Origin: Polyangiales bacterium
Lineage (GTDB): Bacteria > Myxococcota_A > Polyangia > Polyangiales > Houyiibacteriaceae
NCBI GenBank assembly: GCA_965227405.1
Contig: OZ245758.1
Span: 1,577,693 to 1,641,692 of the forward strand
Direction: 5' to 3'
DNA length: 64,000 nucleotides
Every line of letters starts with the position of its first letter. Positions within the stretch are counted from its first letter, which is position 1. The translations under genes were made by a program, and so were the position numbers. Under the pieces are notes generated by a model that was given only the letters and a program-made list of their open reading frames with translations, ran no database searches and was not told the DNA's origin. Below, piece after piece: positions 19,535-60,983 of the stretch.

Positions 19535-19556
19535 CGCAGGCAGGACTATACCAAAA

Positions 19557-20438: not shown

Positions 20439-20439
20439 G

Positions 20440-21342: not shown

Positions 21343-22208
21343 CAGATGTCCACCGCGAGAATCTTTCGGGCCCAAACGATCGAGATGAACCACATGGTCA
21401 ACGCGATGCCCGTGATCGTGTAGCCGATAAAGCCGGATGCGAGCGGCTTGAGCCACTCCGGATCGATCAGGCTCAACACACCCGACATGACGAAGGGCAT
21501 GGCACCCAACACGACTGTCTGACCCTTACCTTCGGCGGTCTTGGTCTTCACGACGCCCTCGAGACGTGACATCTCGCGAAGCGTACCGGCCGAACTTTCC
21601 AACACCGCGGAGAGGTCACCACCGGTCTGACGCGCGATGACGATCGTGGCCAACGCACCTGCGATGGTCTGACTCTGCATGCGCTCGGCAGCGTTCAACA
21701 CGGCCTTATCCACCGGCGTACCGAGCTGGTTCTCCTTCACGAGGAGGTCGAGTTCCTCGCTCATCGGTGCCTGAACCAGCTGAACGGTGGACTTGATCGC
21801 CTCACCAATGGCGGGCGTTGCCTTCAGTGCGTTCGAAAGCATGAGCAACCAACCATCGAGCTGCGCTTCAAGCTGTTCGATGCGCTTGCCCTGCTCCGAC
21901 TCAAGCCACGCCCAAGGGATGAACGCGATACCCATCAACGCGATCAACAGCGCGGGGTGACCGGTCGCCGTAAACGCCAGACCACAAGCTGCAAGGGCGA
22001 GCGCCTGAGTGCGCGCGATCTCGGTGCCGCTCTTTTTGAGCAGCAGAAACTTCACGTACTTGTCGAGGAAGCGAACGTACTGGTCCCACTTGTCTTTGAC
22101 GGGACTGCTCGGCATCGCGAGCGCCATGTAGATCGCGCCGAATCCCCCGAGGCCCATCAGAGCGATGGCCAACCAACCCGAGAGCGGGCTTTGAAGAAAC
22201 GCGGTCAT
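21342..22208 (-). CDS. tadB: TadB-like pilus assembly inner-membrane platform protein (T2SS-F domain)
   Basis: 288 aa. N-terminal TM, cytoplasmic T2SSF domain, C-terminal TM pair. Located directly downstream of the ATPase. Confidence 0.7.
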   Translation of the reverse strand: MTAFLQSPLSGWLAIALMGLGGFGAIYMALAMPSSPVKDKWDQYVRFLDKYVKFLLLKKSGTEIARTQALALAACGLAFTATGHPALLIALMGIAFIPWAWLESEQGKRIEQLEAQLDGWLLMLSNALKATPAIGEAIKSTVQLVQAPMSEELDLLVKENQLGTPVDKAVLNAAERMQSQTIAGALATIVIARQTGGDLSAVLESSAGTLREMSRLEGVVKTKTAEGKGQTVVLGAMPFVMSGVLSLIDPEWLKPLASGFIGYTITGIALTMWFISIVWARKILAVDI

Positions 22209-23938
22209 AGATACTCCCCGTCGTCGACCAAACCGTAGGTGATGAACTCGTCCAAGAACGAGGGCAGGTAGCCGCTTGCGCGGAACTCACCCGTGATCGT
22301 CCCGTCGGACTCAGTACCGGTTCGGTGGTACAGAAAGATGTCGTTCAACACGAACTCGCCATCGTCGTTGAGGCCGTTGAGTTCGGTGATCGCGCTCACG
22401 CGACGCGAACCATCGGAGAAACGCGTCTGCTGCACGACCAAGTGAACACTGGTGGAGATCTGCTCGCGGATCGCGCGAGAAGGAAGATCGATACCGCTCA
22501 TGAGACACAGGGTCTCGATACGTTTCACAGCCTCTTCAGGACTGTTGGCGTGGGTCGTGGTCATCGAACCTTCGTGACCGGTGTTCATGGCCTGAAGCAT
22601 GTCGAGTGCCTCACCGCCGCGACACTCACCGACGACGATTCGGTCCGGACGCATACGCAACGCGTTCTTCACCAGGTCGCGAATCGAGTACTCACCGCGA
22701 CCCTCCATGTTCGGCGGGCGCGTTTCGAGCGACACAACGTGCGGCTGCTCAAGACGAAGCTCGGCAGCATCCTCGATCGTCACAATACGCTCGGCAGAGG
22801 GAATGGCGGAACTGAGCACGTTAAGCAGTGTGGTCTTACCCGAGCCGGTACCGCCACTGATGACGACGTTCTTTCGCACCTTCACGGCGCGAATCAGGAA
22901 CATCGCCATGCGTTCGTTCATCGATCCAAAGCCCACCAAGTCCTTGATGGTCAGGGGATTCTTCTGGAACTTACGAATCGTGATGCAGGCGCCGTTGATG
23001 GCCAGCGGCTTGATGATCGCGTTCACGCGCGAGCCATCTTTGAGGCGCGCATCGACGAGCGGAGTCGACTCATCGATACGTCGACCCAACGGCGTGACGA
23101 TACGTTCGATGACCGCGCGCGCCGACTCATCGTCGGTGAAGCGCAAATCGGTCGCCCAGATCTTGCCGCCCTTCTCGATGTAAATCTTGTAGGGGTGGAC
23201 GACCATGATCTCGCTGCAGTCGTCGTCGGCGAGCAAGCGCTCGAGCGGTCCAAGACCCAAGGCCTCATCCGCCATTTCACGCTTGAACGCGTCCTGATCG
23301 GCCTGCGGCGGAATGTCGTGCTGCAGCTGCTGGAAGATGCGGTGCAAGGCCTGCATGACCTTGGGACGCATCGTGACGTCGTCCATCGCGCCGCGATCGA
23401 GACTCGCGAGGTCCAAGTGGTCGAGCAACATGCGGTGCACGCGACGACGCAACTCGACGCTAATGTCCGAGGTGCCACCTGCGATCTTCAGGAAGCGCTC
23501 GTCCTTGCCCGACGTGGTGCTGTCGAGATCGACTTTGCGCGAACTGGAACTCTGTGGCTTTTGCTGCTGCGCTTGCTGTGGCGGTTTGGGAACCGTCGTT
23601 GCAACCGGTTGTGAACGCGGCGGAGGCGGAGGCTCGCCAATCCGTCGCAGACGAACCAGGTAGGGTCCGATCCGCAACGGAATGTTTGGCGGCGTGTCCA
23701 CCTTGCTGCGCTTGACGCGTTGACTGCCCATCAACGTGCCGTTGGCAGACTGATCGGTGAGTTTGAAGCCCCGTGAAGACGGCTCGACGATCAGGTGTCG
23801 ACGGCTGACTTCGGGGGATGGGAGGACGACATGACAGCTTGGATCCCGCCCGATCACGACGGGACCGTCCGCTTGGATCGGTAGTTCTTCAACCGACCCG
23901 TCGGGCATCTCGATGGAAAGGAGAACGCCGGCTGTCAT
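22205..23938 (-). CDS. cpaF: FHA-domain / CpaF(TadA)-family secretion ATPase fusion
   Basis: 577 aa. N-terminal FHA (VVIGRDPSCHVVLPSPEVSRRHLIVE...FKLTDQSANGTLMG). Pro/Gln-rich linker. Complete CpaF core with Walker A VVISGGTGSGKTTLLN. Confidence 0.85.
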   Translation of the reverse strand: MTAGVLLSIEMPDGSVEELPIQADGPVVIGRDPSCHVVLPSPEVSRRHLIVEPSSRGFKLTDQSANGTLMGSQRVKRSKVDTPPNIPLRIGPYLVRLRRIGEPPPPPRSQPVATTVPKPPQQAQQQKPQSSSSRKVDLDSTTSGKDERFLKIAGGTSDISVELRRRVHRMLLDHLDLASLDRGAMDDVTMRPKVMQALHRIFQQLQHDIPPQADQDAFKREMADEALGLGPLERLLADDDCSEIMVVHPYKIYIEKGGKIWATDLRFTDDESARAVIERIVTPLGRRIDESTPLVDARLKDGSRVNAIIKPLAINGACITIRKFQKNPLTIKDLVGFGSMNERMAMFLIRAVKVRKNVVISGGTGSGKTTLLNVLSSAIPSAERIVTIEDAAELRLEQPHVVSLETRPPNMEGRGEYSIRDLVKNALRMRPDRIVVGECRGGEALDMLQAMNTGHEGSMTTTHANSPEEAVKRIETLCLMSGIDLPSRAIREQISTSVHLVVQQTRFSDGSRRVSAITELNGLNDDGEFVLNDIFLYHRTGTESDGTITGEFRASGYLPSFLDEFITYGLVDDGEYL

Positions 23939-23949
23939 GTCCCTTCGTC

Positions 23950-25113
23950 TCAGTCCTCGTCGGAGGACTCGTCCTCTGCGGTGTTGGTTCGAAGTCGCGC
24001 ACCGGGCGGTCGCGGCTGCTCCACAAGCTCAACCTCGGCAACGCCGCCGCGGAAGTCCTCGTAGATACGAATCGCTTCCTGGATTCGGTTGCGTTGTTGA
24101 AGCGGAATGCCCTGCACGATCGTGGGAATGATGAAGAGCAAGGTCTCGCTCTCTTCCCAACGACGCGAGTGCGATCCGAAGAGTGCACCCAGCACAGGAA
24201 TCTGGCTCAGGCCCGGGAAGCCATCGCGGCTGCGCTGACCCGAACGCGCGATCACGCCACCGAGCACGACCGACTGACCAAGCTCCATGTTGACCAAGGT
24301 GGACAACGTCGAAACGTTACGACCGGGAACACCGGAACCACCGTCATCGGTCAGGTCCGAGACGTCTGCGTTGATCTGGATCTCGAGACGACCACTCTCC
24401 GGATCGTAACGAGGTGTGCAGGTGAGGATTGTGCCGAACTCGATGGTTTCGATCGAACCACCCACGTTGCCCGGAACGAGGAAGTTCACCTCGCCGCCGA
24501 CGTTCACCTGAGCTTGCTGACCGTTGACGGCCACAACGCTCGCCTGACGATAAATGCGCGACCATCCGTTGGACTGCGCGATATCCAAGCGCGGAAGAAT
24601 CGATGAGCTGGTCAGGTTGATGCTGGTCTGCGCACCACCCTCACCTTGAACCCACTGGGTGTTGATGGCCGCAATACTCTGCTGCTGTCCACCGCCACCG
24701 ATCGAGTCGGGGAACCGGATACCAATCGCATGCGAGTACCGATCGACGAGCTGCACAAAGTAGAGGTCGAGACGAATCGTCTCTTTCTCTTCGATCCGCC
24801 CCTCCGGGACTTCCTCGGTCCCGCCCGGCACGGTGATGCGGTACTGCACCTGCGAGCCATCGCGCATGATCATCAGCAGCGATGTGCGACCGGGCTGAAC
24901 GCCGACCAGGATGAAACGGCTCTGATCAGAGGTGAGGCGAACATCGACGATGCCGCGCGTGCCTTCCGAGTAGCTGCGCACACCTTCGGCGGAAATGGAT
25001 GTCTGTTCGCCAACCTCGACCGTAATTTCGCGCTCGCGCTGCGCATGTACGGTCGCGGTTGCTGCCACGAGCGCCACACAACAAGCGGCTCGAATTAGGG
25101 TTCTGTGACTCAT
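23950..25113 (-). CDS. cpaC: CpaC/RcpA-type secretin
   Basis: Signal peptide. N-terminal pilus-formation domain (ITVEVGEQTSISAEGVRSYSEGTRGIVDVRL...). C-terminal secretin domain (VVLGGVIARSGQRSRDGFPGLSQIPVLGALFGS). Confidence 0.85.
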   Translation of the reverse strand: MSHRTLIRAACCVALVAATATVHAQREREITVEVGEQTSISAEGVRSYSEGTRGIVDVRLTSDQSRFILVGVQPGRTSLLMIMRDGSQVQYRITVPGGTEEVPEGRIEEKETIRLDLYFVQLVDRYSHAIGIRFPDSIGGGGQQQSIAAINTQWVQGEGGAQTSINLTSSSILPRLDIAQSNGWSRIYRQASVVAVNGQQAQVNVGGEVNFLVPGNVGGSIETIEFGTILTCTPRYDPESGRLEIQINADVSDLTDDGGSGVPGRNVSTLSTLVNMELGQSVVLGGVIARSGQRSRDGFPGLSQIPVLGALFGSHSRRWEESETLLFIIPTIVQGIPLQQRNRIQEAIRIYEDFRGGVAEVELVEQPRPPGARLRTNTAEDESSDED

Positions 25114-25907
25114 CGGTTTCCTCGAATCTCCTCGATCATGAAAGCTCTGGGACGCGAACGCTGCGCCATCGCCAGTTTCAGAGGCTCGATCAAATCCTCA
25201 TCGGTGGTCTCGGGAACGTCTTGAATGATCTGCATGTCGTCGCCGTTGCGAAGAAGCAGACTGAGATCTCCACGATCACGTCCATGCGTGATCATCGTCG
25301 CTTGCTCGATCGTCACCGCGACACTGACATCGACACCACGCGTGACTGCGCGATCGCTCGACTCGTCTTCGGCTTCGTCGGGTGCGCCGGTGTCGAGACC
25401 CACGGCCAGGACCAGCACGTTTTGAAGAAGCGGAACCGTGACGCGCGAAACGGAGCGCGGTCGGTTTCCGGTGAGCAAGATGTCGACGCGGTTGCCCGGA
25501 CGAAGCAAGCCACCAAACGACGCGGCATCGGACACGCGGATCGTCATCGCGCGCATGCCTTGACGAAGAAGCGCACTCAGATCGCGACGTGAGCCTGCGT
25601 TGGTGCTCAGATCGGTCCAGAACAGAGACTCGTCCGAGTTGATTCGGTTCAGGACGCGAACACCGAGAATGCGCTCGCGATCGGTGGACAGAATGTGGCG
25701 GTCTTCAATGTGCGCCTGAGGAAGCGAGGTTGTGCCCAGCTCCTCGATCGTGATCGGTTCGCCGACCTCGATGTCTGCCGTCGCACGCAGAACGTCGATG
25801 CGATCACCACCGGCCGCTTCCACGGAGAATCGCTTTGTGTAGAGCACAAAGAGAGCGATTCCCGCGATCACGACGATCGTTGCAGCTAGGAGTGCTGTCC
25901 GGTTCAT
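25110..25907 (-). CDS. cpaB: CpaB/RcpC-type Flp pilus assembly protein (SAF domain)
   Basis: N-terminal TM LLAATIVVIAGIALFVL. SAF-like segment LRATADIEVGEPITIEEL. Typical size and gene position upstream of cpaC. Confidence 0.8.
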   Translation of the reverse strand: MNRTALLAATIVVIAGIALFVLYTKRFSVEAAGGDRIDVLRATADIEVGEPITIEELGTTSLPQAHIEDRHILSTDRERILGVRVLNRINSDESLFWTDLSTNAGSRRDLSALLRQGMRAMTIRVSDAASFGGLLRPGNRVDILLTGNRPRSVSRVTVPLLQNVLVLAVGLDTGAPDEAEDESSDRAVTRGVDVSVAVTIEQATMITHGRDRGDLSLLLRNGDDMQIIQDVPETTDEDLIEPLKLAMAQRSRPRAFMIEEIRGNR

Positions 25908-26023
25908 CCTTCAGGCCCAAGCACAAGCAGGGTGCGGACGCTGACCATACCGCACCCGGGGGCTCAGTTCATCAACAGGTTTGTCGATGTCCGCTGAAAA
26001 TGACCTGGATTTGGAGTGTCGGC

Positions 26024-26590
26024 CTACACCAAGGGGATGACGTGTCGGTGAACAATCACCGCGATACACCCGACCAGAAATGCAGGCCCAATCCGAATCC
26101 GCGAGAGACTTTCGCGTTTGATCTTGCGCTTTCGGGCCTTCGGGAGAAACGGGTTGGTCAGGATGATTCCAACATTCTTGAAGGTTTGAAGCAGCTTCCC
26201 CTCGATCGCGAGTTTGCCGATCCCAAAGATCCCCACGGCAAAGAGCGTGGCGATTCCGACTTCGAGACCGATCTTCAGACCCACGATTCCACCGACGGCT
26301 GCGAGGAGCTTGACGTCTCCGCCTCCTCCGGCTCGCAGTTCTTGGCCGGGTGTCGGAATTCGAGCCTTAAATAGCAGAAACGGCACCAGCCCACACCCGA
26401 CGATGCCGAGTATTGAGGCGAGTGCCGCTTCTACGCCGCCCAACAAACCGTGGGCGATTGGCGCCGCAATCAAGGGTGGGAAGGTCAGCCAGTTTCGAAT
26501 CTTGCCCGTCCGGTAGTCCGTGATTGCAGCAACGAGACAAATGCTCGTGGCAATCGCGAGACCGACAAGATCCGGCCGGAGCTGAGGCAT
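26024..26590 (-). CDS. cpaA: A24-family prepilin peptidase (CpaA/TadV)
   Basis: 188 aa polytopic protein. Conserved Asp sites ITDYRTGKIRN and GGGDVKLLAAVG are typical of TadV/CpaA. Confidence 0.8.
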   Translation of the reverse strand: MPQLRPDLVGLAIATSICLVAAITDYRTGKIRNWLTFPPLIAAPIAHGLLGGVEAALASILGIVGCGLVPFLLFKARIPTPGQELRAGGGGDVKLLAAVGGIVGLKIGLEVGIATLFAVGIFGIGKLAIEGKLLQTFKNVGIILTNPFLPKARKRKIKRESLSRIRIGPAFLVGCIAVIVHRHVIPLV

Positions 26591-30054: not shown

Positions 30055-30168
30055 AGGCCAACATTTTTTACCGGAAGTACGAGAAGGCTGGAAGGCGGGA
30101 AGGTTCGGTATCCAAAACCTTCCCGCCTTCCAGCCTTCCCGTGCTTCCGGTTAAAATAGAAGCCCGTT
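30055..30168. mobile_element. Miniature inverted-repeat element (MITE): a left and a right terminal inverted repeat of the IS3-family element at 49638-51003, joined with no transposase gene between them
   Basis: ttttaccggaagtacgagaaggctggaaggcgggaaggtt ... aaccttcccgccttccagccttcccgtgcttccggttaaaa. Each arm is near-identical to the IS end sequence TTAACCGGAAGTGCGGGAAGGCTGGAAGACGAGAAG and its reverse complement. The two arms together form a near-perfect roughly 110-bp palindrome. Confidence 0.75.
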
Positions 30169-32087: not shown

Positions 32088-32223
32088 CCCGAGGGGTTAA
32101 TAGCGTCTTTGGCGGGGATCGTCCCTGGCAGGTGGTTCCGGTCGGCATTCTTCAGGGTGGGCAGCATTCCGCTTCGCGGATCCGGAAGATTTGAAGCTTG
32201 AAAGCCGGGAAGCTCGGACCTGA

Positions 32224-32496
32224 ATTTTAGTGGGAGACGCGAGGCTCGGAGACTGGAGATTTTTCTCTGCGGGGAGTCGCGAGGTTACCCGGCCATCATT
32301 GCTCAATGCGCATCACGCATTGCACAGCTTGAGTGCGAATGAGTTCCGCTTCGCGGGGCTGCCTCTAACGCCTGCGAACCTCGAACGGCCACGCGGGAAG
32401 AGGAATAGGAACGGGCGGGCGAACCAGTAGCGAACGAGTGACCTAATGAAAGGCAATTCTCTCCAGTCTCCGAGCCTCACGTCTCCCACTAAAAAT
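32224..32496. repeat. 273-bp intergenic element bounded by 37-bp inverted repeats (35 of 37 match); MITE-like, or a large structured leader upstream of the S1 protease gene
   Basis: Left arm attttagtgggagacgcgaggctcggagactggagat (32224-32260). Right arm tctccagtctccgagcctcacgtctcccactaaaaat (32460-32496) is its reverse complement with two mismatches/indels. Internal small palindrome caatgcgcatcacgcattg. Confidence 0.55.
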
Positions 32497-32522
32497 CACT
32501 GCGCCCTTTCGCCTTCCCTCTT

Positions 32523-49530: not shown

Positions 49531-49731
49531 GCGAGGAGTCTATACGCAAAACGTCCCGAAGCCGGGAGCGAGAGGGCAAGTCGAGTGGCATAGGCCAGCG
49601 CCGCAAATTGCGAGATGCGCCGCCGGGTTGGCGATATTTTAACCGGAAGTGCGGGAAGGCTGGAAGACGAGAAGATTTCTGGATCCTAAATGGGCCTCCC
49701 TCGCTTTCGTTGACACCGCCTTGGAGGTGTC

Positions 49732-50063
49732 ATGGGCTCAAGAAGATCGAGAAGGAATAGTCGTTACTCGGCTGAGTTTCGCGCTGAAGCGGTGAAACTC
49801 GTCCTGCGAAGCGACGACACGTTTGCTGTGCTGGCGGAACGCCTCGGCGTGAATCGAGGCACGCTCTACAGCTGGTACCGTGATGAGATGGCTCGGAAGA
49901 AACCGAAAAAGAAGCGGACGGCGACGAGTTAAGAGACGCCCGAGGAGGAGTTGCAACGGTTGCGGCGTGAGGTGAAGCGTCTGCAACGGAAACTCGACTC
50001 CGCGGAAGAGGACAAGGTCATCCTAAAAAAGCCGCGGCCTTCTTTGCGCGCGAAAGCGAATGA
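49732..50063 (+). pseudogene. IS3-family transposase OrfA (HTH + leucine zipper), interrupted
   Basis: HTH segment SAEFRAEAVKLVLRSDDTFAVLAERLGVNRGTLYSWYRD. In-frame TAA at 49930-49932 precedes the leucine-zipper segment LQRLRREVKRLQRKLDSAEEDKVILKK. The conserved C-terminus AAAFFARESE-TGA lies in the -1 frame relative to the HTH, after the A6G tract at 50025-50031. Confidence 0.65.
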
Positions 50064-50932
50064 GATTTGCTTTCATTCACGCAGAGAAGGCAAACCACTC
50101 AATCGCTCGTCTCTGTCGCGTCCTTCAGGTCACGCGTGCCGGGTACTACGCGTGGAGAGATCGAGGGCCGAGTCGGACTGAAACGCGTCGACGACGCGTC
50201 GAAGAACTTGTTCAACTCATCTTCCTCGCGAGCTACCAAACGTACGGTAGTCCGCGCGTGTTGGCGGAGTTGCGCGAGACGTATGGGATACGAGTCTCCA
50301 AACGCACCGTTGAAAACGCCATGAAAACACTGGGGATCCAAGCGCGGAAGCGAAAGCGTTTTCGAAACACCACAGAACGCGATGAGACGCGGCCTGTTGT
50401 AGCAAACATACTCGACCGCGACTTTGCGGCGTCACGACCGAACGAAAAATGGGTCAGCGACATCACGTACATTCAGACCGCAAAAGGCTGGTCGTACCTC
50501 GCAGTGATCCTGGATCTGTTCTCACGCAAAGTCGTTGGCTGGTCATTGCGTAGCGACCTCACAACCGAGCTGGTGCTCAGCGCTTTCAATGCGGCGCTGA
50601 TTTCTCGCGCGCCAGAGGAAGAGCTCGTTCACCACTCCGATCGAGGCAGGCAGTACACAAGCTATGCATTCGAACTTGCGGCCACTCAAGCGGGAGTACG
50701 TCTGAGCATGAGTCGCAAAGGCAACTGCTGGGACAACGCGGTCGCGGAGTCGTTCTTCAGCACGCTCAAACAAGAACTCATCTCGCGTCGCACTTGGCGA
50801 GACGAGCAGGATGTCCGGAGTGCGCTCTTCGAGTACATCGAAGTCTTTTACAACCGGGAACGACGTCACTCGACGCTTGGGTACGTCTCCCCAGAGCAGT
50901 TCGAACTAAACCACGCGGCGTTTGTCGCATAG
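50060..50932 (+). CDS. IS3-family transposase OrfB (rve/DDE integrase core)
   Basis: 290 aa. Core regions DITYI...GWSYLAVILDLFSRKVVGW, HHSDRGRQYTS, GNCWDNAVAESFFSTLKQE. Its ATG overlaps the TGA of the orfA C-terminal frame (ATGA). Confidence 0.85.
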   Translation: MRFAFIHAEKANHSIARLCRVLQVTRAGYYAWRDRGPSRTETRRRRVEELVQLIFLASYQTYGSPRVLAELRETYGIRVSKRTVENAMKTLGIQARKRKRFRNTTERDETRPVVANILDRDFAASRPNEKWVSDITYIQTAKGWSYLAVILDLFSRKVVGWSLRSDLTTELVLSAFNAALISRAPEEELVHHSDRGRQYTSYAFELAATQAGVRLSMSRKGNCWDNAVAESFFSTLKQELISRRTWRDEQDVRSALFEYIEVFYNRERRHSTLGYVSPEQFELNHAAFVA

Positions 50933-51049
50933 GTGTCAACGAAACTGAGGGAACCCCAAAACCTTCCCGTCTTCCAGCCTTCCCGTACTTCCGGTTAAAA
51001 AAATCGAACCACCAAGCTCTTTGCACGCTTCGAAAAATGAAAAGCCTGC

Positions 51050-52813
51050 TCAGCGAGTTGCACTCGGAGACATCAGCGCAGCAGCTTGCTTCGCGTCTTC
51101 CCGCGCACGCACCCGATCGCCCAACGCTCGATGCACATCCGCGCGCAGAGCCAAACAAGCCGCAAGCTCCGCTCGATGCGCGCTGCTTCGCGACAGCTTT
51201 CGGACCAACGCCCCTAGCGCACTCAGCGCGTCCTCGTGCTGCTCCAGGTCGTAGAGCAGCGCAGCGCGTTCCCGTGCCGCCCCGATCTGCGCTGCACGTA
51301 GTCGCGCATCGCCTTTGCGGAAACGCTCCAAGATGTCGTCATACACCTCAAGCCCCGCACCCAACCGGTGGTCCGCGACCAACGCGCGTGCCTTCAACAC
51401 CAACAAACGCTGATGGGCACGCGGCATGCTCTTGAGCTGCGATCCCAACGCATCAAGCGCCTCGTCGACCGCCTGCAACGCCTTTCGAAAGTGCCCCTGC
51501 CGGTACACCGCCGCACAACGCGCGATCTGCACGTTCGCCACGCGCCCTTTTCGAACCGGCGCCGATGGCCGCTCGGCGATCACCCGCAAGAACGCTTCAT
51601 GGATCCGCAGGTCCTCCGTCGCGTTGCGACCGCCACGTGAAACCGCGGGCCACAACGCGTCCAACAACGCCTTGAGCTGAGGCTTCTTCCACGACCGCAA
51701 CTTGGCCGCGTTCGCGCGACGCGCCGCCAACGCGTAGCGACCTCGTCGAACCGCATCGCGAACGCTCTCAATCGTCTTGTCTGCACCCCGAAGGTCTTCA
51801 CCTGCCAACTCGGCAGCATGGCGAATACGCCGGATGACATCTTCGAAGTAGTACACGTCTGGCTGCGAACCCGTGGGACGCGCAGGTGCACTCGCTTCTA
51901 AGCGTTCGGCGAGAAACCCCAGCGGATCCCGCGTGAGCGGTGGTGCATCGGCTTTGAACACGCGCAGCAGTTCGTCGAACACCCGATCCGCGGCGAGCGG
52001 TTCGTCGTCGTCCGGCACCACGAAACACACGTTCGAGTGTTTTCGCAGCCACTTGGGCAACGACTCGACTCCCGCTGCGCGATAGCAAAACCAGTAGAGC
52101 TGATGTTTGAGTGGCTTGCGCAGGCGCTTGCGCAGCGCCTTCATGATCACGTCGCCTTCCCAACCCGAATAGCCCAACACGAGTGGCGAACGCGCACGCA
52201 ACACGTCGTCGAGCAAGTCGCTCATGCCCGAACCGCCGTAGCCTTTGGCGCGCTGTTCGATCTCGTCGTCGGTGTTGATCAGGTCATAGAACCAGTACGA
52301 CCCGTGAACGTGCACGATGCGAACGTCGGGACCTTCCAAGTCGATCCGCGCAGTCGTTGCAGGGTGGTCACACACCACATGCGGCACACCAAAGAGATGC
52401 AGTGCACGACTGCAAAAGTCGTCGAAGTTCGGGGTAACCAACAGACGCGTTAGCCCACCATCGACGAGGAGATGCGCGAGCCGCAGGTTTGCGTCCGTGA
52501 GCGGCTGGCCTTCGATCTTGTCGCGAAAGAACGCGCGCCGTTGATCCGGATCCGGATAGGCCTGCTCCAACCAATACGAGTACCCTCCCGCGGGGTCGCT
52601 CGGTGCATCGCCGCTGGCCAACCCGAGGTCTTCAGCACGACGCCGACACTCTTGCTCGATCTGCCACGCCAGCGGAACGCTCGGTACCGAGATCCCCGCA
52701 CCGCAAAGCAGGAAGAAGGGGCTGGTCGATCGCGTCCCCGCACGACTCTCCCGAATGCGAGCGGCGGCGGTTTTGAGGTTGATGAGCTTGGCCATTGTAT
52801 TGGGATCACCCAT
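51050..52813 (-). CDS. SIR2-like (SIR2_2 family) domain protein with a C-terminal alpha-helical, TPR-like region; candidate defence-associated NADase
   Basis: N-terminal half carries SIR2_2 landmarks in order: FFLLCGAGISVPS (GAG nucleotide-binding start), LLVTPNFDDFCSRAL (TNYD-like), IVHVHGSYWFYD (HGS), LVLGYSGWEGDVIMKAL (GYS..D). The C-terminal about 280 aa is helical with A/R/L-rich repeats. The gene abuts the IS3 element. Confidence 0.6.
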   Translation of the reverse strand: MGDPNTMAKLINLKTAAARIRESRAGTRSTSPFFLLCGAGISVPSVPLAWQIEQECRRRAEDLGLASGDAPSDPAGGYSYWLEQAYPDPDQRRAFFRDKIEGQPLTDANLRLAHLLVDGGLTRLLVTPNFDDFCSRALHLFGVPHVVCDHPATTARIDLEGPDVRIVHVHGSYWFYDLINTDDEIEQRAKGYGGSGMSDLLDDVLRARSPLVLGYSGWEGDVIMKALRKRLRKPLKHQLYWFCYRAAGVESLPKWLRKHSNVCFVVPDDDEPLAADRVFDELLRVFKADAPPLTRDPLGFLAERLEASAPARPTGSQPDVYYFEDVIRRIRHAAELAGEDLRGADKTIESVRDAVRRGRYALAARRANAAKLRSWKKPQLKALLDALWPAVSRGGRNATEDLRIHEAFLRVIAERPSAPVRKGRVANVQIARCAAVYRQGHFRKALQAVDEALDALGSQLKSMPRAHQRLLVLKARALVADHRLGAGLEVYDDILERFRKGDARLRAAQIGAARERAALLYDLEQHEDALSALGALVRKLSRSSAHRAELAACLALRADVHRALGDRVRAREDAKQAAALMSPSATR

Positions 52814-54365: not shown

Positions 54366-55240
54366 GCACAACCTGGCGCGAGCGTTTTGCGGAGCTGCAT
54401 CCGCGACGCTTCTTTGTGGAGACCTGGCGTGCGATGGACGCCGAGGCTGCACAAGAGCGCCAGGCTCGAACCGACGCAGGACTTGGCTACGACTGGCGAC
54501 CGCTGATCGCGTTGTGCGCCGGCACCGCGTTTCTCACGTTCATGGAGTACTGGGGCATGCCTCAGGACTGGGACACGATCGTCGAGTACCTGGTCGACCT
54601 GGAGATGGCCGGAGACCTTGAAGGTCGCACGTGGCAGGACTTTCGCTACGGCCCGTGGTGGCGCTTGTCACGTCACGTGTACTGGGCCGTGTGGCGCGTG
54701 CTCGGGTTCCTCGTGTTCCCGATGATCACCATCAAGCTATGTCGGCTGAAGGTGCGCGACCAGAACCTGACGTGGAAGGGAACCGGCGAGCACTTTTGGA
54801 TCTACGGACTCGCGTTCGTGGTGGTGCTTGTGTGTGTCGTTGCCGTCAGCTTCACCGAAGGCTTTTCGAGCTACTACCCCTTCTACAAACAAAGCCATCG
54901 CAGTTGGTTCGACTTCTTGTTTTGGGAGTTCTTCTACATCCTGCAGTTCTTGTCGCTCGAGTTCTTCTTTCGCGGATGGTGGCTTCGCGCCGGCAAGACG
55001 ATGATGGGCAGCACGGCGATCTTCGCGATGATCCCGGCGTACGTGATGATCCACTTTGGCAAAGAGATGCCAGAGACGTTGGCCGCGATCTTTGCCGGCG
55101 TGTTCCTGGGAACTCTCGCGATGCGAACGCGGAGTATTTGGGGCGGCTTTATGGTCCATTGCTTTGTGGCGATCAGCATGGATGTCGCGGCACTCCTGCA
55201 AACCGACGGACTCCCAACCCATTGGTGGCCTGAGTTCTAG
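54362..55240 (+). CDS. CPBP-family (CAAX protease / Abi) intramembrane metalloprotease
   Basis: Polytopic protein. Motif 1 EFFFRGWW (EExxxR-like). Motif 2 FAMIPAYVMIHFG (FxxxH). Motif 3 MVHCFVAIS. Translationally coupled to gltX. Confidence 0.65.
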   Translation: MSTTWRERFAELHPRRFFVETWRAMDAEAAQERQARTDAGLGYDWRPLIALCAGTAFLTFMEYWGMPQDWDTIVEYLVDLEMAGDLEGRTWQDFRYGPWWRLSRHVYWAVWRVLGFLVFPMITIKLCRLKVRDQNLTWKGTGEHFWIYGLAFVVVLVCVVAVSFTEGFSSYYPFYKQSHRSWFDFLFWEFFYILQFLSLEFFFRGWWLRAGKTMMGSTAIFAMIPAYVMIHFGKEMPETLAAIFAGVFLGTLAMRTRSIWGGFMVHCFVAISMDVAALLQTDGLPTHWWPEF

Positions 55241-56237
55241 CGTTTCTTCTTGGCCGCGCGCTTCTTGGTCGGCTTCTTCTTTGCCGCGCGCTTCTTCATC
55301 GGCTTCTTTGCCGCGCGCTTCTTGGCCGGCTTCTTCGCAGCCTTTTTCCCGCCCATGCGGAATTCGATCAGGTGGTTGTACGGGCCTGCGAGCAGCAGCG
55401 CTCCGTCATGAACACACGCCGTCGTAAACGCCTGACAGGGTGCATGCAGCGTTTGCCGCTCAGCGACAAAGCTCTCGCCATCATCCTTTGACGCCATCAC
55501 CAGCTCATCGCCGCCTGCAATCACCGGTCCGTTTGGAACCTCACCAAACACCATGATCGGATCGTCAACTTGCGTTGTCGTGAAGCTCTTGCCGCCATCT
55601 GTAGATCGCAGAAGCACAGCGGTATCGAAGTCGTACGTATCTCCGTCGAGCTCTTCCGCTGCCGACGCGAGGATCGTCCCTGTTGAGGTCTCGAAGACTG
55701 CAAGAATCGGTTTCTTCGCCGCGTGCAGCTTCTTCAGTTTGCCTGCTTGTCCGAGCCAGACGTCGCCTTTGCGATCACCGACGAGCACGCCTTTCGATGA
55801 CTGCTGCATTGACTTCACGAGGTCCTTCGGCCCGCTGACGTTCTTGAACGCTTTCGTGCCGGACTTGCGATACACGACGCGACCACCACCGTGGTAGCCA
55901 CCCGCGGCCCACAAACCTTGGTCACCGTCGACAGCGATGACACGCATGGCTTCGTCGGTCGGGATCGTGACACTGCTCCAGGTTTCCCCACCGTCTGTCG
56001 AGCACGCGACGCCGTCGGATCCCGTTGCGAAGAGAACTCCATCGACCCAGGCCAGACCATCCCCGTAGCCATCAAGTGACCCCTGCAAAACTTCGCTCAG
56101 ACGACCGCCGAGGTCGTTGTAGAAGCGAAGCCAACTGTGCACGTAGAGATTCTCCCCGTCCGACGCGAGTGCTTTCGGTGAGAACAGTTTGGCAAGACTG
56201 GACTGTGCTTTTCGCAGCGTGGTTATGGTCGGAGCCA
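55237..56237 (-). CDS. Beta-propeller (BNR/Ycf48-like) protein with a C-terminal Lys-rich histone-H1-like tail
   Basis: Repeated WS...DGG..W blades. Tail GGKKAAKKPAKKRAAKKPMKKRAAKKKPTKKRAAKKKR. Start taken at MAPTITTL; the longer track ORF (to 56352) would overlap the divergent neighbouring gene. Confidence 0.55.
55244..55340. repeat. About 28-bp tandem repeat (3 units) encoding the KKRAAKK tail
   Basis: ttgccgcgcgcttcttNNNcggcttctt repeated three times on the + strand; in-frame (9-aa unit). Confidence 0.7.
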
Positions 56238-56290
56238 TGCCCAACGCTACTCGGCGATCTTTACACGTGTCTATGGTGTAGCGTTGCGCG

Positions 56291-56905
56291 ATGGCGTACC
56301 GCATCGCGTTTGTGTTTCTGGCGTTTGCGCTTGGTGCCGCAAGTTGTGACAAGCGGCCCTCGTACGCCGAGTTTCAAACACGTAGCTGGCAAAACGGCTG
56401 CTCAAGAGATTCAGATTGCGTGTTGGTCCCCGTGCCTTGCGACCATTGCGGTGAGGAAGATTCCATCAACGCCAGTGTCGAACGCGACTACCGCGAGCTC
56501 GCCGCCAAAGTGAACTGCGACGACTACTCGACCGAAGACGAGTGCGGATCGCGAATCGACATGGAACCGGCGTGCGTGTCCGGACGATGTGCCGCACGCG
56601 TTGCGACCGTTGCCGAGGAACTTGCCGAGGAACCTGACCCTTGCGCGGAACTCCGGTCGCGTGCTCTCGCGATCCTCTCCACGCCCTCAGCAAGCTGTGG
56701 CGGTGAAGGCGATTGCACCTGCTACCCGGCGTTCATCGATTGTGGGGGTGTACGCGATACCGCGTCGGCCGAACAGCTGCGCACGATCGCCGAAGAAGGT
56801 CGTGCAGCGAACTGCGGCTACGTCAGCCCACAAGGCGCGACATTCAACTGCGCACCCTCCGAGTGCACACCGCTCTGCGACAACGGCACGTGCCGAAACG
56901 AGTAA
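56291..56905 (+). CDS. Cys-rich lipoprotein, hypothetical
   Basis: Lipobox MAYRIAFVFLAFALGAASC. 204 aa with about 20 Cys. Confidence 0.5.
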   Translation: MAYRIAFVFLAFALGAASCDKRPSYAEFQTRSWQNGCSRDSDCVLVPVPCDHCGEEDSINASVERDYRELAAKVNCDDYSTEDECGSRIDMEPACVSGRCAARVATVAEELAEEPDPCAELRSRALAILSTPSASCGGEGDCTCYPAFIDCGGVRDTASAEQLRTIAEEGRAANCGYVSPQGATFNCAPSECTPLCDNGTCRNE

Positions 56906-57036
56906 ACCCTGGGGACAGGTAAACTGGTTTACCGGACCTTTGATTTGGCAAACGCGGTTAGTTGCGAGCGAAAGCGTTCGAGGCTCGGTAAACAGGTTTA
57001 CCTGTCCCCAGGGTTTACTGTCCGTAGAGCGGACAG
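56902..57036. promoter_or_regulatory. Highly symmetric palindrome cluster between the Cys-rich lipoprotein gene and the GT2 gene; candidate operator, bidirectional terminator or structured RNA
   Basis: Perfect 23-bp inverted repeat GTAAACCCTGGGGACAGGTAAAC (56902-56924) / GTTTACCTGTCCCCAGGGTTTAC (56996-57018). Two 16-bp near-palindromes GGTAAACnnGTTTACC at 56918-56933 and 56987-57002. Six GTAAAC/GTTTAC hexamers in 117 bp. An adjacent perfect hairpin CTGTCCGtagagCGGACAG (57018-57036). Confidence 0.6.
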
Positions 57037-57142
57037 TGGGCGGCCGACAATCAATTACATCTGAGTGACAATTGAGTGAGGGCGCGTTGCTTGAATCCGC
57101 TTCATCGTGCGTCGATTCGCACGGTTTTGACGGAGAAGCACC

Positions 57143-58591
57143 TTGGATACGGCCATTATCGCCCTGTACTTAGTCGCCCTGAGCATCTTGGGGATCTACG
57201 GCGCCCACCGCGGCACGCTGCTGATGCTCTATTTGCGCCATCGGCACCGCAAGCACACGCCGGATTCGCTCTTTGCCGAAGCCGACTTGCCGCTGGTCAC
57301 GATCCAGCTTCCGATGTTCAACGAGATGTACGTGGTCGACCGCCTTCTCGAAGGTGTCGCCACGCTCGACTACCCGAAAGAGAAACTGCACCTGCAGATT
57401 CTCGATGACTCGACTGACGAGACCACCAAGATCGCGCGCGCCAAAGTCGACGAGCTTTGCGAGCGTGGTTTTGATGCGGAGTACATCCACCGCACCGATC
57501 GCACCGGCTACAAGGCGGGCGCTCTCGAACACGGTCTAAAGACCGCCAAGGGCGAGTTCGTGATGGTGTTCGACGCGGACTTCGTTCCCGAAGGCGACAT
57601 CATCCGCAAGCTCATCCACTACTTCACCGACGAGAAGGTCGGCATGGTGCAGGCTCGCTGGGGTCACATCAACGCCGAGTACTCGCTGCTTACCAAGTGC
57701 CAGTCGATGATGCTCGACGGCCACTTCGTCATTGAGCACATCGCGCGCAACCGCTCGGGTCGTTTCTTCAACTTCAACGGCACCGCGGGCATGTGGCGCA
57801 AATCCACCATCTTTGATGCCGGTGGTTGGCAGCACGACACCGTCACCGAAGACATGGACCTCTCGTTCCGCGCCCAGCTCAAGGGTTGGCAGTTCATCTA
57901 CGTGCCGACCGCTCTCGCGCCGGCCGAGCTTCCCTGTGAGATGAACTCGTTCAAGACCCAGCAGTTCCGTTGGGCCAAGGGTTCGGCGCAGACCACCAAG
58001 AAGCTTCTGTGGACGGTGTTGAAGGCCGACATCCCCTTCAAGGTGAAGATGGAAGTTGTCTTCCACCTCACGAACAACTTCGCCTACCTGTTCCTGGTGA
58101 TCCTCGCTGCGCTGCAGCTCCCGAACATGCTGCTGCGCCGTCACATGGACAATCCCGAGTTGCTCTTGCTCGACGTCCCGCTTTTCGCCGCCACCTGCGG
58201 CAGCATCTGTGTGTTCTACCTGGTCACGCACCGCGCGCTTTACGACAACCTCTGGGAGGCCGTGAAGCGCTTGCCGCTGATGATGGCGCTGGGCATTGGC
58301 TTGAGCATCAACAACGCGCGTGCAGTGCTTGAAGGACTCTTCGGCACGGACCTGGAGTTCGTCCGGACGCCCAAGCATGGTGTCGAAGGCACCGACGACA
58401 GCTGGAAGAAGAAGAAGTACAAGGCCAAGTGGCCGCTTCACTCGCTCATCGAAGTGGGCTTCGGCATCTACTTCGTGATCACGATCGCTCTTGCTGTGGT
58501 CACCGGAAGCTGGATCACGATCCCCTTCTTGGTGCTCTTCATGGTCGGCTTCCTCTACGTGGGATCGCTGAGCCTGTACCAGGCACGCTGA
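57143..58591 (+). CDS. Processive family-2 glycosyltransferase (cellulose/hyaluronan-synthase-like polysaccharide synthase)
   Basis: 482 aa. N-terminal TM, then GT-A motifs in order: ILDDSTDET (D,D), VFDADFVP (DxD), TVTEDMDLSFR (TED), QQFRWAKG (QxxRW). Multiple C-terminal TM helices. Confidence 0.85.
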   Translation: MDTAIIALYLVALSILGIYGAHRGTLLMLYLRHRHRKHTPDSLFAEADLPLVTIQLPMFNEMYVVDRLLEGVATLDYPKEKLHLQILDDSTDETTKIARAKVDELCERGFDAEYIHRTDRTGYKAGALEHGLKTAKGEFVMVFDADFVPEGDIIRKLIHYFTDEKVGMVQARWGHINAEYSLLTKCQSMMLDGHFVIEHIARNRSGRFFNFNGTAGMWRKSTIFDAGGWQHDTVTEDMDLSFRAQLKGWQFIYVPTALAPAELPCEMNSFKTQQFRWAKGSAQTTKKLLWTVLKADIPFKVKMEVVFHLTNNFAYLFLVILAALQLPNMLLRRHMDNPELLLLDVPLFAATCGSICVFYLVTHRALYDNLWEAVKRLPLMMALGIGLSINNARAVLEGLFGTDLEFVRTPKHGVEGTDDSWKKKKYKAKWPLHSLIEVGFGIYFVITIALAVVTGSWITIPFLVLFMVGFLYVGSLSLYQAR

Positions 58592-58659: not shown

Positions 58660-59787
58660 GTGAGCGCGCCGCCCAAACCGCCAAAGTCGTACGACCGCGA
58701 GGGTGGACAGAAGGTCAAGCTCGCTCGCTACGCGCGTTGGTTTGGCGTCTTTCTCATGGTGCTGACGGTCTTGGCGTGGCTCTTTCTGCAGGACCGTCCC
58801 GCCGTCTCACGGAGTCAGTTGCGCGATGCGGTCGAGTGGGCGGAGTCCGTCCAATGGGAGCCGTGCGAACGTCCCGTGCTCTTTGGCGAAGCGATTGCGG
58901 GAGAAGGCACAGACCTGCTCCAGCGGGTGTTTGAAGCCAACGGTTGTCTCGACGAAACCTGCAGCACGTTGCGACGAGCGGTGCAGCACGAACGAGTCTG
59001 TTCACCGCAACGTCCCGCAGATGGACCGTGGCTCGAGGACGTGGTCGCGCGCATCCGGGCAATCGACGATCCACGCGAGAAGCTCGAGATCGGTTTTGCT
59101 GCACTACGCGCGGTCGATGACACCCGTCGCGGCGAACAGCGAGCGTTCAACTTCATTCCCCCTGACACCTCAAGCGTGCACGGGGAAATGGTCGGACTCG
59201 TACGGTTTCATCCTGAACTCATGCGAGACCCAGCCGTTCAGCGCGCTGCAAATACGCTTCGCGACACCTCACCACCAACGCATCGTTTCATCCCACAACG
59301 GCATGCGGGCATTATCTTGGGCCCGCTGGAGCGGGGGAGAATTCGTCCTCAGTCGCACACTCCCTATCCGCGCGCGGGCGCCGTGTCGCTGGCCATTCTA
59401 GGAAAGCGGGTGCAACGATGTGCCGAGTTTGAGTGTGTCCGAGCGGCGCTTCGTGGACGAATGGCGCGTGACGAACCGGGAGCGTGGAGCGTGCTTCTCC
59501 AAGGTCCGCGCGCGCGCGGTGCAACGCTGATTGCGGACACAACAAACATCGTGCTGCTTTCACTGGCCGAGGATGTCGAAGTGCTCGCAGCACATCGGTC
59601 TTCGCAACGCATGCTCGCGGTGCAGATCATGATGCGGGCGGACCCGTGCCGACCTGTTGCTGAGGTCATCACGGCCGAAACCGGACTGGTTCATGTGCCT
59701 GAAGAAGATGGCGTCGGAGCCATCCGCGATCCCGTAACCGGTTTCGAAGCGCCCGTGGAGTACTGCCACGAGGGGCTGCATCGATGA
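58660..59787 (+). CDS. Membrane-anchored hypothetical protein, paralogue A (tandem pair downstream of GT2)
   Basis: N-terminal TM (RYARWFGVFLMVLTVLAWLFL). Conserved block AVEWAES..EPCERPVLFGEAI...GC.DETCSTL.RAVQHERVCSP is shared with paralogue B. Confidence 0.55.
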   Translation: MSAPPKPPKSYDREGGQKVKLARYARWFGVFLMVLTVLAWLFLQDRPAVSRSQLRDAVEWAESVQWEPCERPVLFGEAIAGEGTDLLQRVFEANGCLDETCSTLRRAVQHERVCSPQRPADGPWLEDVVARIRAIDDPREKLEIGFAALRAVDDTRRGEQRAFNFIPPDTSSVHGEMVGLVRFHPELMRDPAVQRAANTLRDTSPPTHRFIPQRHAGIILGPLERGRIRPQSHTPYPRAGAVSLAILGKRVQRCAEFECVRAALRGRMARDEPGAWSVLLQGPRARGATLIADTTNIVLLSLAEDVEVLAAHRSSQRMLAVQIMMRADPCRPVAEVITAETGLVHVPEEDGVGAIRDPVTGFEAPVEYCHEGLHR

Positions 59788-60983
59788 ACGAGTCCAAAAC
59801 CCGAGACGGTGGCGAGCGCGCTGCAGCCGCTCGATACGCTCGATGGAGCGGAGTTCTGCTCATTGCACTCTGCGTCGTGAGCTGGGCGATCGTGTCGGCC
59901 CGCCCAGGAGTCTCCGACGAAGTGTTGCACGAGGCCGTGCGTTGGGCAGAGTCGGCGCCGCGAACACCATGCGAGCGCCCACCGCTGTTCGGAGACGCAC
60001 TGCCCGGCACGGGCTCTCTGCGCACGCTCGTGGAACGCGGTTGCACAGATGCGCGATGCAGCACGCTTCTGCATGCCGTCCAGCACGAGCGTGTGTGTGC
60101 GCCGGAGCGACACCAGAGTTCACGATGGATCGACGGCATCTTGGAGCGTCTGCCCGCCTCCCGATCACCCAGCGAACGCCTGCGATTGATCATGCACGCA
60201 CACCGAGCCATGGATGACTTCCGTAGAGGTGAGCAGCGGGCGTTTCCGCGTCCCTACGACCTGCGCGAACTGGCCTCGGCAACCCAGTCGGTATGGCGCC
60301 AAGCGCGCGAGCTGACGGATGTCGATGGACTCGTTGCTGCGGCCGAAACCCTGGTGGCGACGTCACCCGATGCCACGTTTCTGATCGGACGAAATGCAGG
60401 CGAGGTGCTCTGGGGATTTCAACGAGGTGAAATTGCACCTGGCCCGAACGCACCTCATCCGCGTGCGACTACAGTTGCTCTCGCGCACCTTGGACAGGGG
60501 ATTCAGCGATGCGAACTGCCCTGCGGAGAGGCATGGACTTGGGACGAATGCTCCCGGTTCGCGTGCGTTTCAACGTACCTGAGCACACGGCCAAACGCAG
60601 ATCCCGTCTCGAGGTGGCAGGCACTCGTCCGCGGGCCACGTGCGTACGGCCCCAGTTGGATCGTCGGCAACACGCAATTCGTCGGCGCGCAGTTGAACCA
60701 CCACCTGCGTGGGTTCGAGCAACAACGTTCGCTCGAACGGCTCTTGCTCACGGCACTTCGGCTCCGAGAGTTGGGTGAGTGTTCCACGGGAATCGAGCAA
60801 GTCGTGCAGCTCGGAGAGGTCATCGCACGGACATCGAGTTCTGCGCGGCTTCGAATGCACGCGCACGACGTCCCTTTCGAAGTGCACATCGAAACCAGCA
60901 ACTCTGCGTTATGGATTCGAGACTCGGTGCCCAACGGTCCAGCCCTGCGCGTCGAACTTTGTTTGGAAGAATCGGTCCGGTGA
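59784..60983 (+). CDS. Membrane-anchored hypothetical protein, paralogue B
   Basis: Its ATG overlaps the stop of paralogue A as ATGA. Same N-terminal TM and Cys block (AVRWAES..TPCERPPLFGDAL...GCTDARCSTLLHAVQHERVCAP). Confidence 0.55.
   Translation: MNESKTRDGGERAAAARYARWSGVLLIALCVVSWAIVSARPGVSDEVLHEAVRWAESAPRTPCERPPLFGDALPGTGSLRTLVERGCTDARCSTLLHAVQHERVCAPERHQSSRWIDGILERLPASRSPSERLRLIMHAHRAMDDFRRGEQRAFPRPYDLRELASATQSVWRQARELTDVDGLVAAAETLVATSPDATFLIGRNAGEVLWGFQRGEIAPGPNAPHPRATTVALAHLGQGIQRCELPCGEAWTWDECSRFACVSTYLSTRPNADPVSRWQALVRGPRAYGPSWIVGNTQFVGAQLNHHLRGFEQQRSLERLLLTALRLRELGECSTGIEQVVQLGEVIARTSSSARLRMHAHDVPFEVHIETSNSALWIRDSVPNGPALRVELCLEESVR

Follow-up and report, generated by a model that had tools for sequence, protein, structure and literature searches.

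A Strain-Variable 112-nt Palindromic Array Between a Lipoprotein Gene and a GT2 Glycosyltransferase Gene in a Polyangiales Bacterium: A Candidate Non-Autonomous Insertion

In a 64,000-nt stretch of a Polyangiales genome (GenBank assembly GCA_965227405.1, contig OZ245758.1), which was analysed over its full length and is referred to here as the window, a dense array of GTAAAC/GTTTAC palindromes lies between a lipoprotein gene and a gene for a glycosyltransferase of family 2 (GT2). A related strain with an identical GT2 protein lacks exactly 112 nt of this region. The explanation favoured here, with somewhat more confidence than doubt, is that the array represents an inserted palindrome of 112 bp, non-autonomous and of the class formed by miniature inverted-repeat transposable elements (MITEs) and REPINs, the hairpin-forming doublets of repetitive extragenic palindromic (REP) sequences. 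This reading draws on the precise presence or absence of the segment, its palindromic anatomy, a third strain in which the site is filled, and its absence from more distant loci. The preliminary description of the region, made from the letters of the DNA, had listed a REP/MITE-like insertion among several options; the exact 112-nt polymorphism, the terminal inverted repeats, and the REPIN-like doublet support that option.

Filled and Empty Sites

The empty site was found in a 10.8-kb contig (L001; sample SRR23272279), which was retrieved by an exact-protein look-up of the GT2 protein and has the same gene order. This contig aligns with the window left and right of the site, and what it lacks is exactly the 112 nt at window positions 56906-57017; BLAST and alignment place its position 5088 opposite both window 56905 and window 57017. 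The GT2 proteins of the two strains are identical, as is the 126-nt leader from the insertion point to the GT2 start (100% identity), and the sequences right of the site share 98.5% identity over 1.65 kb. The empty site reads ...AAT CAG TAA/CTGTCCGTAGAGCGGACAGT (CAGTAA/CTGTCC, with a stroke at the junction; junction sequence GAGTAACTGTCC), and the filled site of the window reads ...AAC GAG TAA(ACCCTGGGG...109 nt...CCCCAGGGT)TTA CTGTCCGTAGAGCGGACAGT.

A third, more divergent strain (sample SRR29593758), represented by the contigs L022 and L023, has the element at the same position, and its junctions are identical. L023 carries the left arm and ends ...GAGTAAACCCTGGGGACAGGTAAACT, and L022 carries the right arm and begins AACAGGTTTACCTGTCCCCAGGGTTTACTGTCCG... 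/ AACAGGTTTACCTGTCCCCAGGGTTTACTGTCCGTAGAG... Since the filled site recurs in an independent assembly from another sample, the array is not an assembly artefact. No trace of it was found at the more distant orthologous GT2 loci (L006-L019), whose GT2 proteins share 93%, 89%, and 88% identity, and two loci with distant homologues of the lipoprotein (L025 and L026) leave no room for the element downstream of the lipoprotein gene. In the empty-site contig, a small hairpin directly follows the stop codon; judged from this alignment, the small hairpin is native and the large palindrome is extra DNA. On the same comparative grounds, the array is a dispensable presence/absence polymorphism, borne by some strains of the Myxococcota species but not by another, and it does not belong to the conserved regulation of GT2.

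The array starts at the lipoprotein stop codon TAA (56903-56905) and ends 125 nt before the TTG start of GT2 at 57143, within an intergenic region of 237 nt, which agrees with the context upstream of GT2 given in the preliminary description. That description had also proposed two regulatory roles, namely a two-site operator for a dimeric regulator and a long structured 5' untranslated leader of the GT2 operon, and neither of them was supported by the comparison. A cis-regulatory element of this kind, with GGTAAACnnGTTTACC occurring twice as the operator or with the leader RNA as the active form, could account for the pair of identical near-palindromic 16-mers that precede the operon at a distance of 69 nt from each other and for a very stable fold, and an insertion is in principle co-optable for such a role. 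It is nevertheless highly improbable: the element is missing from the empty-site strain despite its identical GT2 protein and leader, it is missing from every other orthologous locus, it matches no Rfam family, and it begins in the upstream stop codon, so that it belongs at least equally to the 3' end of the lipoprotein gene. Furthermore, the conserved upstream motifs of GT2 lie 3' of the element. The core of one of them, GACA..TTACA..(T/C)GACAATTGA, is kept at all orthologous GT2 loci (88-93% protein identity) and is located 3' of the insertion point; as read across these loci, the motif is GACAAT..TTACA..TGACAATTGA. The block at 57044-57078 that contains it is probably the native promoter/operator region of GT2, untouched by the insertion.

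The small hairpin next to the array had been described as perfect with a 7-bp stem; its presence was confirmed, and the stem proved to have 8 bp. Hairpins of this type (CTGTCCG-N5-CGGACAG) are kept among the nearest GT2 relatives only: the empty-site contig has it, the L006 group carries it with a differing loop as CTGTCCG-CTCAG-CGGACA, and the more distant loci L015 and L018 lack it. Together with the block GACAATCAATTACATCTGAGTGACAATTGA, the small hairpin (57017-57078 in all) forms a candidate operator and promoter of GT2. The idea that the small hairpin is itself a repeat targeted by the element was rejected, as the hairpin is unique in the window.

Architecture of the Palindromic Array

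The array is organised around an inverted repeat with arms of 39 nt each (56901-56939 and 56981-57019), which are 90% complementary and separated by 41 nt. Nested within it is a perfect 23-nt core, GTAAACCCTGGGGACAGGTAAAC, at 56902-56924 on the forward strand and 56996-57018 on the reverse strand with a spacer of 71 nt, for which shuffled sequences gave an expectation of 0. The 16-nt palindrome GGTAAACNNGTTTACC occurs at 56918-56933 and 56987-57002 and nowhere else in the 64-kb window, even with up to two mismatches allowed (0.05 expected); the two GGTAAACnnGTTTACC palindromes are in inverted orientation, one per complementary arm, 69 nt apart. Six of the ten GTAAAC hexamers of the window fall within the 117 nt at 56902-57018. 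As the window-wide count (10, with 9.3 expected) is at expectation, the anomaly is one of clustering and not of abundance. The inverted repeat with its spacer, the pair of 16-mers, and the six hexamers thus stand as they were first described.

The repeated unit of the array can be written as GTAAAC-N11-GGTAAAC-NN-GTTTACC, present in two inverted copies around the 41-nt spacer. The inserted segment has perfect 19-nt termini, which start (A)ACCCTGGGGACAGG, and its 16-nt palindromes are subterminal, about 12 nt in from each tip. The sequence 5' of the palindrome is GGGGACA, and the palindrome stem is perfect, without a mismatch bubble. The GC fraction of the element is 0.51, as against about 0.60 in the surroundings. 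Neither the flanks nor the rest of the 64-kb window showed detectable similarity to the 112-nt segment. The element contains three open frames within its 112 nt, and no relatives of these frames were found among 5.8 billion predicted proteins, a search that was also meant to catch copies lying under called open reading frames (ORFs).

Folding analysis, which the preliminary description had suggested, yielded a single long hairpin spanning 119 nt. As RNA, it has a predicted energy of -73.1 kcal/mol (z = -9.8), and as DNA, the two strands reach -41.8 and -39.3 kcal/mol (z about -10); in both cases, none of 200 shuffled sequences was as stable. An Rfam search of the window returned no family at the gathering threshold. 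The sole sub-threshold match on the element scored 36 bits with a plant miRNA-precursor model whose gathering score is 200; it is spurious and reflects the generic likeness of long hairpins.

A strong hairpin that begins at a stop codon, between two co-directional genes, also suits a plain intrinsic terminator of the lipoprotein gene, which we nevertheless consider very unlikely. No U-run follows the stem (there is no T-run past 57019), a consensus scan makes no terminator call, a 119-nt hairpin of -73 kcal/mol is far above terminator size, and the empty-site strain manages without the element.

Polarity and Target Site

Comparison of the 1.65 kb right of the site shows 25 differences between the window and L001 and 63 between the window and L022, which gives the local tree ((window, L001), L022), whereas the element is shared by the window and L022 and missing from L001. 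Such a disagreement between the right-flank tree and the filled/empty pattern requires a gain plus a loss, or recombination. Left of the site, relationships are different: within the final ~110 nt there are 2 differences between the filled alleles, as against about 12 between L001 and the window. Over the whole lipoprotein gene, the three strains are about equidistant (~94.5%) in a mosaic pattern. The simplest reading of these patterns is a single insertion on one haplotype of a species-level population, with L001 as a recombinant that would carry the ancestral empty left-hand haplotype; precise excision in the L001 lineage is an alternative.

The flanks of the insertion are TAA on the left and TTA on the right, which form a direct repeat at two of three positions and a perfect inverted repeat, with one insertion available for comparison. 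TTA is a candidate for a mutated 3-bp (TWA) target duplication. Alternatively, the TA at 57016-57017 could be a 2-bp duplication, a model under which one A of the empty site goes unexplained. A model without duplication, of the Y1 type, fits the flanks as they stand.

Further Copies, a Mobilising Enzyme, and the Weight of the Evidence

Several results weigh against a mobile element, and they are gathered here. The search for copies covered the 64 kb of the source genome and public collections that do not include the source genome, and it is to this range that the genome-wide count proposed in the preliminary description was confined; no second copy emerged from it, the other 63.9 kb of the window included. 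An exact 18-mer of the terminus gave four matches among the GTDB representative genomes (185,579 species, one each), all of 18-19 nt and none extending, in a scan that missed the window's own locus and is silent on the copy number in the source genome. In metagenomes of the Joint Genome Institute (JGI), the pattern GGACAGGTAAACNNGTTTACCG gave two matches only (L020 and L021), which is by estimate about the chance number for a 20-nt pattern, and viral contigs and plasmids gave no relevant match. No transposase with matching ends was found in the window, and none lies beside the element. The flanking TAA and TTA make no clean direct duplication, the polarity of the event (gain or loss) is read from the pattern of relationships rather than strictly proven, and mobility would be deduced from one polymorphic site.

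Individual candidates were considered and set aside. The four short matches in the representative genomes were rejected as chance; one of them (L002), read in context, lies in apparent coding sequence. The JGI contig L021 carries CCAGGGGACAGGTAAACCTGTTTACCGA at 1038-1065, a match of 27/28 nt to the arm at the stop codon of a short-chain dehydrogenase/reductase gene, and ends 31 nt further on. As a relative of the element it was rejected as chance-level, with 8/18 positions matching outside the pattern. An IS3-family insertion sequence (IS) 6 kb upstream was rejected as a source, its ends (TGGGCCTCCC...) being unrelated. A Pfam scan of about 45 window ORFs found no Y1_Tnp domain.

The Logan contigs used here end inside long hairpins: the end of L023 and the start of L022 lie in the GTAAAC element, L024 stops 29 nt into a hairpin termed IR-A, and L001 starts in an arm of another hairpin repeat (family A, below). 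Long palindromes seem to break Logan assemblies whatever their copy number. The breaks in L022 and L023 were therefore rejected as a sign of multiple copies, given that L024 also breaks in the unrelated IR-A hairpin. Their positions are, moreover, unlike those expected from a repeat or an inverted repeat in the Logan assembly graph, whose k we take to be 31.

A one-off, non-mobile, lineage-specific hairpin is the rival that gains from these results. It could have arisen once through the insertion of templated or filler DNA, for example in break repair or replication template switching, or have been carried in by homologous recombination along with a lipoprotein-gene haplotype, and it could have been kept as a 3' hairpin of the lipoprotein gene, neutral or of slight use as a transcript stabiliser or terminator. 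The finding of a single copy across everything searched and the lack of a clean target duplication speak for it, as does the switch of relatedness at the insertion, where L001 is the window's closest relative on the right and the outlier on the left (about 12 differences, against 2 between the window and L023). The right end with its flank (CAGGGTTTACTGTCC) also resembles the inner arm (CAGGTTTACCTGTCC) at 12/15 positions, a possible trace of local templating, although this likeness is not significant once the many comparisons are considered. Against a one-off origin, no source of the inserted DNA was detected in the flanks or elsewhere in the 64-kb window. The nested symmetry of the segment, in which the 19-nt termini are perfect and the subterminal palindromes are duplicated, has the look of transposase-recognised ends and is unlike filler DNA. 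In addition, multi-copy hairpin repeats are demonstrated in the source genome. On balance, we regard the one-off origin as possible but rather unlikely, and the MITE/REPIN-class insertion as the better account.

Coordinates, Neighbouring Genes, and Other Repeats of the Window

The features of the locus are collected in Table 1.

Table 1. Positions of the palindromic element, its parts, and the adjoining genes and native signals in the window.
Feature	Position	Strand	Description	Basis or remark
Inserted segment	56906-57017		112 nt, absent from L001	BLAST and alignment; boundary can be shifted by 1 nt (56905-57016) owing to a shared A
Palindromic core	56906-57014		109 nt, ACCCTGGGGACAGGTAAAC...GTTTACCTGTCCCCAGGGT, perfect 19-nt termini	Sequence, inverted repeat, fold
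Left arm of 39-nt inverted repeat	56901-56939		First 5 nt (AGTAA) are native flank, including the stop codon	
Right arm of 39-nt inverted repeat	56981-57019		Last 2-3 nt are native flank	
Left-arm REP-like unit	56918-56933		Subterminal 16-nt palindrome GGTAAAC-TG-GTTTACC	
Right-arm REP-like unit	56987-57002		Subterminal 16-nt palindrome GGTAAAC-AG-GTTTACC	
Inter-arm spacer	56940-56980		41 nt, partly self-complementary, apical part of hairpin	
Left flanking triplet TAA	56903-56905	+	Also the lipoprotein stop codon	
Right flanking triplet TTA	57015-57017	+		Comparison of empty and filled sites
Lipoprotein gene	56291-56905	+	204 aa, Cys-rich, lipobox LGAASC	No Pfam match
GT2-family glycosyltransferase gene, cellulose/poly-N-acetylglucosamine-synthase-like	57143-58591	+	TTG start	
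Native small hairpin ACTGTCCG-TAGAG-CGGACAGT	57017-57037	+	8-bp perfect stem	Outside the insertion
Conserved GT2 upstream block GACAATCAATTACATCTGAGTGACAATTGAGTGAG	57044-57078	+		Alignment and upstream sequences

The interval from an Rce1-like gene to GT2 (window 55241-56905) is a variable island among relatives. A BNR-repeat gene (55237-56352, minus strand) is shared by the window and the L006 group, whereas L001 and L023 lack it; L015 and L018 have no lipoprotein gene, and the L006 group has an additional minus-strand gene of 495 aa in the island. Beyond GT2, the two genes at 58660-60983, which have no Pfam match, are replaced or absent in relatives.

Other hairpin repeats occur in the window, which indicates that the source genome harbours REP/MITE-like hairpin repeats. 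In family A, a loop of about 10 nt joins 41-nt arms whose core is ACCGGAAGTNCGNGAAGGCTGGAAG, and four arm matches were found in the window against 0 expected. One copy is intact (30065-30156) and another is split (49637-49678 and 50959-51000). If the density in the window held genome-wide, a 9-Mb genome would carry a few hundred copies. Parts of the family also occur in the sister-strain contigs L024 and L001. The split copy holds an IS3-family IS in its loop (49691-50958, 1268 bp), with TG...CA ends, 27-nt terminal repeats (TGGGCCTCCC.../...GGGAACCCCA), and a 3-bp AAA duplication; its orfB (50060-50932) encodes rve and HTH_21 domains. This IS is the only transposase-bearing element in the window, and contig L001 starts inside the right arm of family A, just past this IS. 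Targeting of REP loops is known for some IS elements (PMC1525189), and the placement of the IS3-family element in a family-A loop recalls this behaviour.

A 278-nt intergenic MITE-like element (32221-32498) has 39-nt terminal inverted repeats that are 95% complementary (TGAATTTTAGTGGGAGACGCGAGG...), and it is present once in the window. A run of twelve A residues follows at ~32535, and CCGGAAG-containing remnants lie upstream at ~32180-32220. Among the remaining genes, a Tad/Flp-type pilus cluster (17712-26590, minus strand) encodes T2SSE ATPases, one of them with an FHA domain, together with T2SSF, a secretin, RcpC/CpaB, and an A24 prepilin peptidase. Beside it, two DUF4953/Met-zincin-like proteins of 1464 and 1561 aa are encoded at 2741-11821, and a SIR2_2-domain protein is encoded at 51050-52813.

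Proposed Mechanism and Meaning

In the favoured reading, a transposase from another locus of the 9-Mb genome would mobilise the element in trans. Such an enzyme could be of the DDE type, in which case it would read the terminal inverted repeats and duplicate a T(A/T)A or TA target. Alternatively, it could be a Y1/HUH enzyme, either a REP-associated tyrosine transposase (RAYT) or an IS200/IS605-like one, which would read the subterminal hairpins on single-stranded DNA and leave no duplication. The present-day effect of the element is probably passive, as it would place a very stable 3' hairpin on the lipoprotein transcript with the stop codon in the base of the stem. This hairpin could stabilise or terminate that transcript and shield the GT2 promoter from read-through, and the insertion would add 112 bp of spacing between the lipoprotein gene and an intact GT2 promoter region.

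A bolder proposal, which we hold to be unlikely, would make the array the first member to be recognised in a so far undescribed family of REPIN-like elements in marine or sediment Myxococcota. In such a family, a triple-GTAAAC module (GTAAAC-N11-GTAAAC-NN-GTTTAC) would replace the GTAG and GC-rich palindrome of known REP sequences, an uncharacterised and possibly Y1/HUH-type transposase would insert the element seamlessly next to stop codons or existing hairpins, and the empty site of L001 would represent precise excision.

For annotation, these results mean that the symmetry upstream of the polysaccharide synthase gene is not its operator or a riboswitch-like leader. The conserved upstream signals of GT2 are the GACAAT..TGACAATTGA block, found at all orthologous loci, and the small hairpin of the nearest relatives, and both lie further downstream. 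For genome biology, the locus provides a case in which strains of Myxococcota differ by having gained or lost a hairpin element, a kind of feature that is ordinary and unsurprising. A search of the literature on MITEs in myxobacteria found no relevant paper, and small palindromic repeats thus appear essentially undescribed in Myxococcota. The occurrence of a second hairpin family in the same window, with an IS in one of its loops, suggests that large myxobacterial genomes carry REP-like repeat systems.

Comparison with Known Systems

Within the same genome, the nearest parallel is family A, whose copies of about 92 nt are likewise long intergenic hairpins. They differ from the GTAAAC element in having an unrelated sequence and no internal sub-palindromes and in being demonstrably multi-copy; the short string TTTACCGGA that both share is probably due to chance.

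Known MITEs with long terminal inverted repeats include Correia/NEMIS in Neisseria, ERIC/IRU in enterobacteria, and RUP in Streptococcus pneumoniae, and Correia and RUP use a TA target. The element resembles these families in its general traits, being 100-150 bp long, non-coding, intergenic, and polymorphic among strains, with terminal inverted repeats that fold into a long hairpin, and its target contains TA, as that of Correia and RUP does. It departs from them in its flanks, where TAA and TTA form no exact direct repeat and the TA model leaves an additional A in the empty site, and in the fact that neither family members nor a parent IS with the same ends were found in the window or the 185,579 species representatives.

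Palindrome-associated transposable elements (PATEs) derived from IS200/IS605 offer a further likeness, since they too have subterminal hairpins about 12 nt from their tips and lack a target duplication (compare PMC3333891). The ends of IS200/IS605 elements are, however, not mutual inverted repeats, whereas the GTAAAC element is a palindrome as a whole.

REP sequences and bacterial interspersed mosaic elements (BIMEs) are mobilised by RAYT, also called TnpA_REP (Bertels and Rainey 2011, PMC3116915; Ton-Hoang et al. 2012, PMC3333891), and a REP is an imperfect palindrome preceded on its 5' side by a conserved tetranucleotide, which is GTAG in E. coli (PMC3333891). The element differs from this scheme in that no GTAG precedes the foot of its palindrome, although the tetranucleotide may differ in other taxa, and in that its stem is A/T-rich and perfect (GGTAAAC/GTTTACC) instead of GC-rich and imperfect. 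Its density also differs, with one doublet in 64 kb as against about one per 5-10 kb in classic REP genomes; at this figure, the element could be unique or number up to a few hundred copies per 9 Mb. No RAYT gene was identified among the roughly 45 window ORFs scanned. A REPIN, for its part, is a doublet of REP sequences in inverted orientation that, with the spacer between them, forms a hairpin (PMC3116915), and the element shares the essentials of REPINs and BIMEs: two inverted short palindromes and a less symmetric spacer make up one hairpin of about 100 nt, which is extragenic, lies just past the 3' end of a gene, varies among strains, and has no clean target duplication. The spacing of its units, 69-71 nt, is likewise close to that of the GI REPINs of P. 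fluorescens SBW25, in which 71 bp separate the conserved 16-mers (PMC3116915).

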